Part shown: positions 1 to 360 of the stretch, in pieces
Position numbering within the stretch: the first letter of the stretch is position 1
How the letters are laid out: the number at the start of each line of letters is the position of its first letter
From: Escherichia coli
Lineage (GTDB): Bacteria; Pseudomonadota; Gammaproteobacteria; Enterobacterales; Enterobacteriaceae
DNA length: 360 bases
Assembly: GCF_003334765.1 (NCBI RefSeq)
Contig: NZ_QOWT01000130.1
Strand: one strand, 5' to 3'
Program-made: the position numbers and the translations under genes
The notes under the pieces: model-generated
Database searches by the model: none
The model's input: only the letters and a program-made list of their open reading frames with translations
What the model was told of the DNA's origin: nothing

Positions 1-76
<76 letters not shown>

Positions 77-82
77 TAATTC

Positions 83-98
83 ACCACAGCGATGTGGT
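83..98 (+). other. Small hairpin 7 nt downstream of the copy-1 CCA: 6-bp stem with a GCGA (GNRA-type) tetraloop
   Basis: Seen in sequence: accaca (83-88) is the reverse complement of tgtggt (93-98); loop gcga (89-92). No U tract follows, so it is not an intrinsic terminator. Any role in processing is inference. Confidence 0.4.
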
Positions 99-150
99 AA
101 CTTCGGTGAGATTGTGAAAGTTTGCACTCATCGGGGAAGGGTGAGAACCT

Positions 151-165
151 TCGACTAAGGTTCGA
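151..165 (+). repeat. Degenerate copy of the tRNA variable-arm/T-arm region
   Basis: Seen in sequence: spacer tcgact (151-156) matches tRNA 41-46, and aaggttcga (157-165) matches tRNA 50-58, in the same order with a 3-nt deletion (tRNA 47-49 tcg) between them. That is 15 matched positions over an 18-nt tRNA segment. It lies about 68 bp upstream of the 19-nt 3'-end copy, so the spacer looks like a diverged partial tRNA duplication with inserted sequence. Confidence 0.5.
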
Positions 166-185
166 TTCGAGCGAAAGCGAGAGAA

Positions 186-202
186 CGTTGCCACAGGCAA
201 CG
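186..202 (+). other. Inverted repeat / hairpin: 7-bp stem with a 3-nt loop
   Basis: Seen in sequence: cgttgcc (186-192) is the reverse complement of ggcaacg (196-202); loop aca (193-195). No U tract follows. Function unknown. Confidence 0.35.
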
Positions 203-232
203 GCCCGAAGGGTGAGGAGCGAAGCGACGAAT

Positions 233-251
233 AATCCTTCCCCCACCACCA
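233..251 (+). repeat. Exact 19-nt copy of the tRNA-Tyr 3' terminus (aatccttcccccaccacca) inside the spacer
   Basis: Seen in sequence: 233-251 is identical to 58-76 (last 3 nt of the T loop, T stem 3' strand, acceptor 3' strand, discriminator and CCA). It is not preceded by the rest of a tRNA, so it is a 3'-end fragment, not a third gene. Confidence 0.9.
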
Positions 252-285
252 TCTCAAGCATTACCTCAAAATTTGAATTACCCCT

Positions 286-360
<75 letters not shown>

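Follow-up and report, generated by a model that had tools for sequence, protein, structure and literature searches.

What is the segment that separates the two identical tRNA-Tyr genes of the Escherichia coli tyrT locus, and what could the copy of the tRNA 3′ end that it carries do there? The stretch of DNA analysed (360 bases, referred to as the window) matches, base for base, the tyrT–tyrV region of K-12-type E. coli chromosomes, in which the order of the locus is purU, tyrT, spacer, tyrV, 3 repeat units, and, on the opposite strand, narI. The Rfam tRNA model matched both tRNA-Tyr copies in the window, and ARAGORN called no tRNA in it because the window ends cut both gene copies. No promoter-like or terminator-like site was found in the tyrT–tyrV spacer, which is consistent with co-transcription of tyrT and tyrV; a separate tyrV promoter, or a terminator, within the spacer was rejected on this ground. 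The features of the window are given in Table 1.

Table 1. Features of the tyrT–tyrV window, in order of position
Feature	Position	Strand	Basis
tRNA-Tyr(GUA) gene tyrT, 3′ 76 nt, CCA at 74–76	1–76	+	Rfam tRNA match 1–73; RefSeq annotation of identical locus
20-nt repeat, copy 1: T-loop AAT, T-stem 3′ strand, acceptor 3′ strand, ACCA, and one T	58–77	+	
Spacer between tyrT and tyrV	77–285		RefSeq annotation; Rfam tRNA matches on both sides
Spacer-type tRNA-linked repeat (TLR/RtT) unit, 175 nt	77–251	+	Alignment with three 178-bp downstream units; exact gap in UK_Dog and LF82 alleles
Unit-specific 5′ region	77–132	+	Common to Siccibacter and E. asburiae spacer-type units; unrelated to tRNA and to downstream-unit 5′ regions
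RtT RNA, Rfam RF00391, full-length match	120–251	+	132.9 bits vs gathering score 45; E = 1.5e-29; model 1–130 of 130
Closing helix P1, 5′ strand (GGGGAAGGGU), partner 234–243	133–142	+	MFE; RNAalifold; both-side changes in P. stewartii and tRNA-Pro-linked unit
Hairpin P2, GAACCUU / AAGGUUC; T-arm-like motif is the 3′ strand	145–163	+	Not separated by covariation from Rfam's long-range pairing
Variable-arm/T-arm-like stretch	151–168	+	Local alignment to tRNA; Kosakonia and C. werkmanii chimeras join at exactly this motif
Hairpin P3 (UUCGAGC-GAAA-GCGAGAG; tandem G.A mismatches in window copy)	166–183	+	4 pairs changed on both sides
Hairpin P4 (CGUUGCC-ACA-GGCAACG)	186–202	+	5 pairs changed on both sides; 97% of cells paired
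Hairpin P6 (GGAGC-GAA-GCGAC; weak in window copy, 5 bp in downstream-type units)	216–228	+	4 pairs changed on both sides
20-nt repeat, copy 2: 234–243, predicted P1 3′ strand; 244–251 (CACCACCA), predicted single-stranded tRNA-like 3′ tail	233–252	+	
34-nt 5′ leader of tyrV; the entire spacer in short-allele strains	252–285	+	
tRNA-Tyr(GUA) gene tyrV, 5′ 75 nt, second identical tRNA copy	286–360	+	Rfam tRNA model; RefSeq annotation

The sequence AATCCTTCCCCCACCACCA occurs twice in the window, at the 3′ end of the first tRNA-Tyr (58–76) and at 233–251, and the 2 occurrences are identical at 19/19 positions. The exact direct repeat extends one base beyond this 19-mer (58–77 = 233–252). Allowing up to 3 mismatches returned just these 2 matches, and none of 200 dinucleotide shuffles yielded any. 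The perfect 19-nt copy of the tRNA 3′ end named in the original prediction is therefore real, and is in fact 20 nt long.

The spacer belongs to a described RNA family, which the original prediction had not recognised: it matches RF00391 at 132.9 bits, and RefSeq labels the spacer RNA as “RtT sRNA, processed from tyrT transcript.” Residues 77–251 are one TLR/RtT unit between the co-transcribed tyrT and tyrV, lying on the tRNA strand, inside the tRNA operon, and directly after a stable-RNA gene (tyrT). TLRs were first described by Egan & Landy (1978), and 22 copies at ten loci in K-12 were reported by Rudd (1999) (both as cited in PMC8144298). The hallmark of the family is that the last 18–19 bp of a unit repeat exactly the 3′ end of whichever tRNA or rRNA gene lies upstream, and TLRs are also found behind 5S rRNA (PMC8144298). 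The 178-bp × 3.14 repeat of the tyrT locus goes back to Egan & Landy (1978) and Bosl & Kersten (1991) (as cited in PMC8144298 and PMC3318445), and rttR is one repeat unit of the tyrT operon (PMC3318445). Thus, that the tyrT repeats carry 19 nt of the tRNA-Tyr 3′ end is already known and has been on record since 1978, and automatic annotation labels the spacer unit as RtT. The 19-nt copy in itself changes nothing; it is the defining hallmark of a TLR.

Downstream of tyrV, Tandem Repeats Finder detected 3.1 copies of a 178-bp repeat, every copy of which ends in the same 19-mer; the statement in the original prediction, that the repeats of the tyrT locus each end in the 3′ 19 nt of the tRNA, was correct. 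The check that it proposed, for the same unit beyond the second tRNA, gave a positive answer: the 3 downstream units of 178 bp align with the spacer unit. The 119-nt core, from GGGGAAGG onward, is identical to the first downstream unit (U1) at 103/119 positions (87%), and at 84/100 positions with the 19-mer left out. By alignment, the spacer unit is a diverged paralogue of the 178-bp repeats. The 2 kinds of unit differ in 2 respects: (i) their 5′ regions are unrelated over the 56 nt of the spacer unit, and a reading of the spacer 5′ region as a diverged form of the downstream one was rejected because 1506 of 2000 shuffles reached its score against U1; (ii) the period is 175 nt in the window and 178 nt downstream.

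The annotated RNA product of the tyrT locus is the unit after tyrV only, RttR (b4425 in MG1655), and RttR is also the experimentally characterised RNA. It is annotated with 171 nt as the first unit after tyrV, starts 7 nt past the tyrV CCA, and stops at the CCA of the 19-mer. The window unit resembles this RtT/RttR RNA in covariance-model family (RF00391), in its core (87% identical), in operon and strand, and in the 19-nt 3′ terminus. By contrast, the characterised unit follows tyrV, whereas the window unit is a spacer-type paralogue between tRNA genes, with a closed tpr frame and a patchy distribution (described below).

The segment 84–251 folds with a free energy of -60.2 kcal/mol (z = -2.9); in the MFE structure, residues 133–142 pair with residues 234–243, and CACCACCA is single-stranded. 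The same closing helix was obtained with RNAalifold on an alignment of 23 units, taken from E. coli and from 13 further genomes of Enterobacterales among the matches listed (the genera being Acerihabitans, Pseudocitrobacter, Enterobacter, Kosakonia, Superficieibacter, Pantoea, Lelliottia, Siccibacter, Erwinia, and Serratia). The cross-species set, ~15 Enterobacterales loci among the matches listed, came from a scan of contigs with a 16-nt pattern; the pattern gave mostly chance matches, and the set is a convenience sample, neither random nor complete. Among the units listed, Enterobacteriaceae, Erwiniaceae, and Serratia all retain the 119-nt core. Under a six-helix model, standard pairs occupied 88.9% of cells (36.5%–46.6% in slid controls), and 17 pairs were changed on both sides (3–6 in slid controls); none of 500 shuffles reached either value. 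Four of the six helices, the closing helix included, are supported by covariation, and the support for P1 and P4 is just as strong when Rfam's own structure is used. Thus, the first 10 nt of the 19-mer (AUCCUUCCCC) are predicted to be the 3′ strand of the closing helix, pairing with GGGGAAGGGU at 133–142. Neither the long-range central helices of Rfam nor the local P2 and P5 have both-side changes in either set; therefore, covariation picks no partner for the T-arm-like motif, which is paired in both competing models, as the 3′ strand of P2 in the local one and, in part, through long-range pairs in that of Rfam.

The 3′ end of a unit follows the local tRNA. Among the matches listed, 19 of 21 units close with 18–19 nt that match their own upstream tRNA exactly. 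The tRNA-Tyr of Pantoea stewartii ends in ...CCTTCTCCCACCACCA, and the unit carries the same T; the 5′ strand of this unit is GGAGAGGG in place of GGGGAAGG, so that the closing helix is kept. In “Enterobacter sp. Ag1,” a homologous unit stands after the tRNA-Pro gene in a cluster resembling argX-hisR-leuT-proM; its last 19 nt, AATCCTCTCTCGCCGACCA, are also the last 19 nt of this tRNA-Pro, and its 5′ strand is changed to ...AGAGG. After proM in E. coli K-12, we found no RtT match, just a terminator; the tRNA-Pro-linked unit is therefore specific to “Enterobacter sp. Ag1” among the matches listed. Comparison across species shows the unit 3′ end to be that of the upstream tRNA, with the 5′ strand of the closing helix changing to match. 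This tracking agrees with the published TLR hallmark, and the new part is the accompanying change of the internal partner strand.

The unit is also a unit of variation. In UK_Dog_Liverpool and LF82, the tRNA genes are 34 and 33 bp apart, respectively, and exactly the 175-bp unit is missing relative to K-12; the breakpoints can be placed no finer than within the 20-nt repeat. The coverage of whole-window megablast matches was inflated by the joining of separate pieces, so allele counts were taken from a spacer-only query, which found the unit at a coverage of at least 80% in 1921 of 5426 complete E. coli genomes. E. coli can do without the spacer unit, because ~65% of its genomes do not have it. 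Among 60 evenly spaced records, approximately half had the short spacer, ~35% the long one, and ~12% just one tRNA-Tyr gene; between 0 and 3 downstream units were present. Recombination between the 3′-end copies, suggested in the original prediction, is thereby borne out: the allele data demonstrate it at the DNA level, many strains lacking exactly the 175-bp unit, with breakpoints inside the repeat.

The 19-mer was expected to be conserved in relatives, which holds in part. The tRNA–unit–tRNA–unit layout recurs in Siccibacter colletis with an exact 19-mer, and a small contig of Enterobacter asburiae has a spacer-type unit between two tRNA-Tyr ends, again with an exact 19-mer; the spacer-type unit is old. 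In the O157 lineage (~292 genomes), by contrast, the 19-mer carries 2 substitutions (AATCCTTTCCCCACCGCCA), of which one adjoins the CCA, and the spacer unit also has 2 changes in hairpin P4. Therefore, strict identity to the tRNA is not required in every lineage.

A second tRNA-like element had been placed at 151–165, where a degenerate copy of the T-arm, together with the 19-mer, was taken to indicate that the spacer arose by partial duplication of the tRNA gene followed by divergence. The best local alignment of the whole tRNA with the 156-nt unit body is at 151–168 (TCGACT---AAGGTTCGATTC against tRNA TCGACTTCGAAGGTTCGAATC), with 17/18 positions identical and one 3-nt gap, and 24 of 2000 dinucleotide shuffles reached its score (p ~0.012). 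In the same test, 113, 179, and 203 of 2000 shuffles did so for the 3 downstream units. The similarity at 151–168 thus appears to be present, although just marginally above chance taken alone. The 15/15 identity at 151–165, 68 nt upstream of the 19-mer, stands, and the reality of the longer stretch rests more on the family-wide conservation of the motif AAGGTT.G and on chimeric copies. In Kosakonia cowanii and Citrobacter werkmanii, a degenerate tRNA/TLR chimera lies upstream of two intact tRNA-Tyr genes; it consists of a near-complete tRNA-Tyr 5′ part to ...AAGGTTCGA, followed by a spacer-type core that rejoins at AATCCTT. Such a chimera is either a tRNA with a T-loop insertion or the result of a secondary deletion between the tRNA AAGGTTCGA and the unit AAGGTTCGA. 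The tRNA similarity of the 5′ 56 nt of the spacer was not above chance in shuffle tests (z ≤1.1), nor was that of residues 77–133 to tRNA 1–49 or to the chimeric pseudo-tRNAs (z ≤1.1), and within 77–251 there was no match by the Rfam tRNA model or by ARAGORN. An anticodon-arm remnant was also considered, as 115–133 is 74% identical to tRNA 25–43 and the downstream units look similar by eye; it was ruled out when the 5′ regions of five units were compared with tRNA 1–49 and the two chimeras (z ≤1.1).

These results bear on whether the spacer could be a decayed tRNA-Tyr pseudogene, that is, a third gene copy that received a T-loop insertion of ~67 nt and then diverged, which was the model of the original prediction and which we consider quite unlikely. 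The T-arm-like stretch and the exact 19-mer do stand in tRNA order, and in the K. cowanii and C. werkmanii chimeras a tRNA-Tyr 5′ part runs into a TLR core; however, the chimeras are equally explained by secondary deletions between two AAGGTTCGA copies, residues 77–133 resemble neither tRNA 1–49 nor the chimeras above chance, and the Rfam tRNA model does not match the spacer. Furthermore, the core behind tRNA-Pro carries the 3′ end of that tRNA, and a location behind 5S rRNA is known from the literature (PMC8144298), so the core is not specific to tRNA-Tyr. Since the core stands behind tRNA-Pro and the 5′ part of the unit has no tRNA similarity, we do not accept the whole unit as a decayed tRNA-Tyr copy. 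A simple decayed duplicate is at odds with a 119-nt core that belongs to a structured RNA family also present behind other genes. Direct repeats from T-loop to CCA invite comparison with integrative elements, because this is the typical crossover region of tRNA-targeting integrases. A scar or miniature of such an element, with the tRNA 3′ end duplicated as attL/attR, would share with the window an insert flanked by T-loop-to-CCA repeats beside an intact tRNA gene and a precise presence/absence polymorphism. The insert between the repeats is tiny (156 nt), however, the flanks are purU and narI with no integrase or mobile-element gene nearby, the units of 150–180 nt form head-to-tail arrays, and the insert itself is a structured RNA, conserved and paired with the repeat. 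An internal 5′ strand that covaries with the repeat is a property of RNA rather than of an att site, and we regard this origin as very improbable.

A neutral origin is harder to dismiss, and we hold it possible but doubtful. The unit would then be a selfish or neutral tandem duplication kept by unequal crossing-over, with the 19-mer marking the duplication boundary in the T-loop and with neither a processing role nor a functional RNA. Its absence from ~65% of E. coli genomes and the downstream copy number of 0 to 3 fit this account, as do the substitutions in the 19-mer and P4 of the O157 copy, the degenerate last unit of some arrays (e.g., the second Kosakonia unit), and the published RtT phenotype, which was withdrawn, leaving no known function (PMC8144298). 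Against it stand the conservation of the 119-nt core in Enterobacteriaceae, Erwiniaceae, and Serratia, where 17 base pairs are kept through both-side changes, and the retention of spacer-type units with an exact 19-mer in three genera; and the compensatory changes of the P1 5′ strand where the tRNA 3′ end differs are not what recombination alone predicts. Coding by the unit has next to no probability. Tpr, a 29-aa “protamine-like protein,” is annotated inside RttR (tpr, b1229, within the first downstream unit), and the window unit has a homologous frame that might encode a similar arginine-rich peptide. In the window, this frame opens with GTG and is closed by a stop codon after just 5 codons (V-R-T-F-D-stop, 142–159); among the matches listed, it is intact just in E. 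coli U1 and is interrupted or shifted in U2, U3, and nearly all other species. Tpr-like coding in the window unit is refuted by the in-frame stop and by a frame that is not conserved across units or species among the matches listed.

Taken as a whole, the segment is probably best explained as a TLR unit with a tRNA-like 3′ end that serves as a processing and recombination module, and the best-supported roles are those of a 3′-processing/closing-helix module and of a recombination substrate. In the finishing of tRNA 3′ ends, RNase E cuts a few nucleotides past the CCA, and exonucleolytic trimming then proceeds back to the CCA. Each unit would end in a tRNA-like context of sequence and structure, on which the same 3′-finishing enzymes would be expected to act, cutting and trimming the precursor at each repeat. 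We infer that the 19-mer would both give the unit a tRNA-like 3′ end and close its fold, so that the tyrT–unit–tyrV precursor would be resolved at each repeat into two tRNAs and a discrete structured spacer RNA of ~168 nt. In the DNA, the 20 bp shared exactly with the true tRNA end would drive unequal or slipped recombination, which would keep the copy identical to the tRNA (concerted evolution) and add or remove whole units. Identity to the local tRNA could also come from recombination alone, without a processing role. Recognition of the repeat by RNase E, which would define the 3′ end, has been proposed for the 5S-linked TLRs (PMC8144298); the idea in the original prediction that the 3′-end copy is a substrate for 3′ processing matches this suggestion and also agrees with the annotated ends of RttR. 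A stringent-response phenotype once given to RtT has since been ascribed to a reading frame next to it, and TLRs are listed with “no known function” (PMC8144298). The closing helix that covaries with the host 3′ end, the long and short natural alleles, and the mutated 19-mer of O157 offer handles on processing and fitness.

A further reading, which we think unlikely, is that TLRs form a family of mobile structured RNA modules, in which the closing helix depends on a copied 3′ end of the host gene as its pairing partner. Units would pass from one stable-RNA operon to another by recombination within the near-universal T-loop sequence (GGTTCGAATCC) and so acquire the new host's 3′ end, after which the 5′ strand would undergo compensatory change; once settled, the units would act in cis on precursor processing or tRNA yield. 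Perhaps this reading is partly covered already by Rudd (1999). The tRNA-Pro-linked unit, the compensatory change in P. stewartii, and the tRNA/TLR chimeras fit it and are not proof of it.

Among the regulatory RNAs derived from tRNA spacers is 3′ETS-leuZ (mentioned in PMC8144298). It resembles the RNA proposed here in being a stable RNA that ordinary tRNA processing frees from a tRNA precursor. It differs in that it is a sponge for base-pairing sRNAs, whereas no such target is known for the tyrT spacer unit, and it is not known to be defined by a copy of a tRNA 3′ end. The window unit shares with other TLRs, including the 5S-linked RrA, RrB, and RrF, a 3′ segment of 18–19 nt that equals the 3′ end of the upstream stable-RNA gene; these units likewise lie inside tRNA or rRNA operons and are co-transcribed, with the repeat proposed to direct 3′ processing by RNase E (PMC8144298). 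By contrast, RrA, RrB, and RrF bind Hfq and CsrA in vitro, and the TLRs of tRNA operons, those of tyrT included, score <0.01 in a CsrA-binding predictor (PMC8144298).

The 175-bp spacer unit (window 77–251), a tRNA-linked repeat (RtT), was found to be polymorphic in E. coli; some strains have the unit, others lack it, and only 1921 of 5426 complete E. coli genomes carry it. UK_Dog_Liverpool and LF82 are examples of strains without it, the unit being absent exactly at the 20-nt repeat. The gene pair itself also varied: in approximately 12% of the sampled E. coli genomes, a single tRNA-Tyr gene replaces the tyrT–tyrV pair (single-gene alleles, sample rows H74–H76 and H101–H104), some of these single-gene genomes being without any RtT unit, and the number of downstream RtT units per sampled genome ranged from 0 to 3. 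The O157-lineage spacer unit had two substitutions in its 19-mer, the copy of the tRNA-Tyr 3' end (AATCCTTTCCCCACCGCCA; approximately 292 genomes), and hairpin P4 had a further two (GTTGCC to GTTTTC); this unit may be in decay.

Coordinates of the features compared
Feature	Location	Strand	Details
Short tyrT–tyrV spacer, UK_Dog_Liverpool	L002 1220–1253		34 bp
Short tyrT–tyrV spacer, LF82	L003 1220–1252		33 bp
O157-lineage spacer unit	L004 1199–1373		E. coli O157 SRCC 1675
tyrV leader	window 252–285		TCTCAAGCATTACCTCAAAATTTGAATTACCCCT
tyrT leader, last 14 nt	compared in L001 2462–2491		AAAAGCATTACCCCGT
RtT-like units, ‘Enterobacter sp. Ag1’	L027 3090–3365	(-)	~1.9 tandem units
tRNA-Tyr and RtT unit, Pantoea stewartii	L064 12115–12368
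Spacer between two tRNA-Tyr genes, Pantoea sp. IMH	L049 10578–10859		282 bp
Degenerate tRNA/RtT chimera, Kosakonia cowanii	L075 9850–10009	(-)
Degenerate tRNA/RtT chimera, Citrobacter werkmanii	L006 380–532	(-)
Antisense ORF	window 81–257	minus	58 aa, TTG start; comparable to ychS

The segment at window 133–154 was 86% complementary (19/22; pairs I1 and I2) to 47–68 and 341–360, where both flanking tRNAs have their T-arm and 3' acceptor region; therefore, the 5' strand of the unit could compete with tRNA folding in the precursor. Judging from the sequence, this strand could alternatively pair there with either 3'-end copy. Within the window copy of the unit, tandem G.A/A.G mismatches were observed in each of hairpins P3 (169–170/179–180) and P6 (217–218/226–227). 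Other species have Watson–Crick pairs at these positions (CTCTCGC/GCGAGAG in E. asburiae and GTCTCAT/ATGAGAC in Serratia). The tandem mismatches may represent a conserved non-canonical motif.

The RtT-like units of ‘Enterobacter sp. Ag1’ follow a tRNA-Pro gene that belongs to an argX-hisR-leuT-proM-like cluster, and the complete unit terminates in the 3' 19 nt of that same tRNA-Pro; at the corresponding position after tRNA-Pro, nothing but a terminator is present in E. coli K-12 (L125 1013–1050). The P. stewartii tRNA-Tyr has the acceptor stem variant A7:T66; this T recurs in the 3' end of the RtT unit, whose closing helix has a compensating G-to-A change on its 5' strand. The Pantoea sp. IMH spacer contains two degenerate RtT-like pieces, each with the end GAATCCTTCCTGCACTG, which score 38.9 bits, below the Rfam gathering score; this is a further lineage with repeat material between tRNA-Tyr genes.

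In K. cowanii and C. werkmanii, the chimera is located upstream of two intact tRNA-Tyr genes and consists of the tRNA-Tyr 5' part (to ...AAGGTTCGA), a spacer-type RtT core, and a decayed 19-mer. The substitutions in the tRNA-like part are identical in both genera, which makes the chimera either old or a product of transfer.

Both AAGCATTACC and ...ACCCC.T occur in the tyrV leader as well as in the final 14 nt of its tyrT counterpart. By sequence comparison, the tyrV leader looks like the tyrT leader plus an internal insertion or duplication of approximately 17 nt; if so, the tRNA gene duplication took in part of the 5' leader.

The antisense ORF of the window is probably a spurious product of the repeat. 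In MG1655, the antisense strand of the downstream repeat units carries the annotation of a putative uncharacterized protein, YchS (ychS, b1228; L126 710–985).
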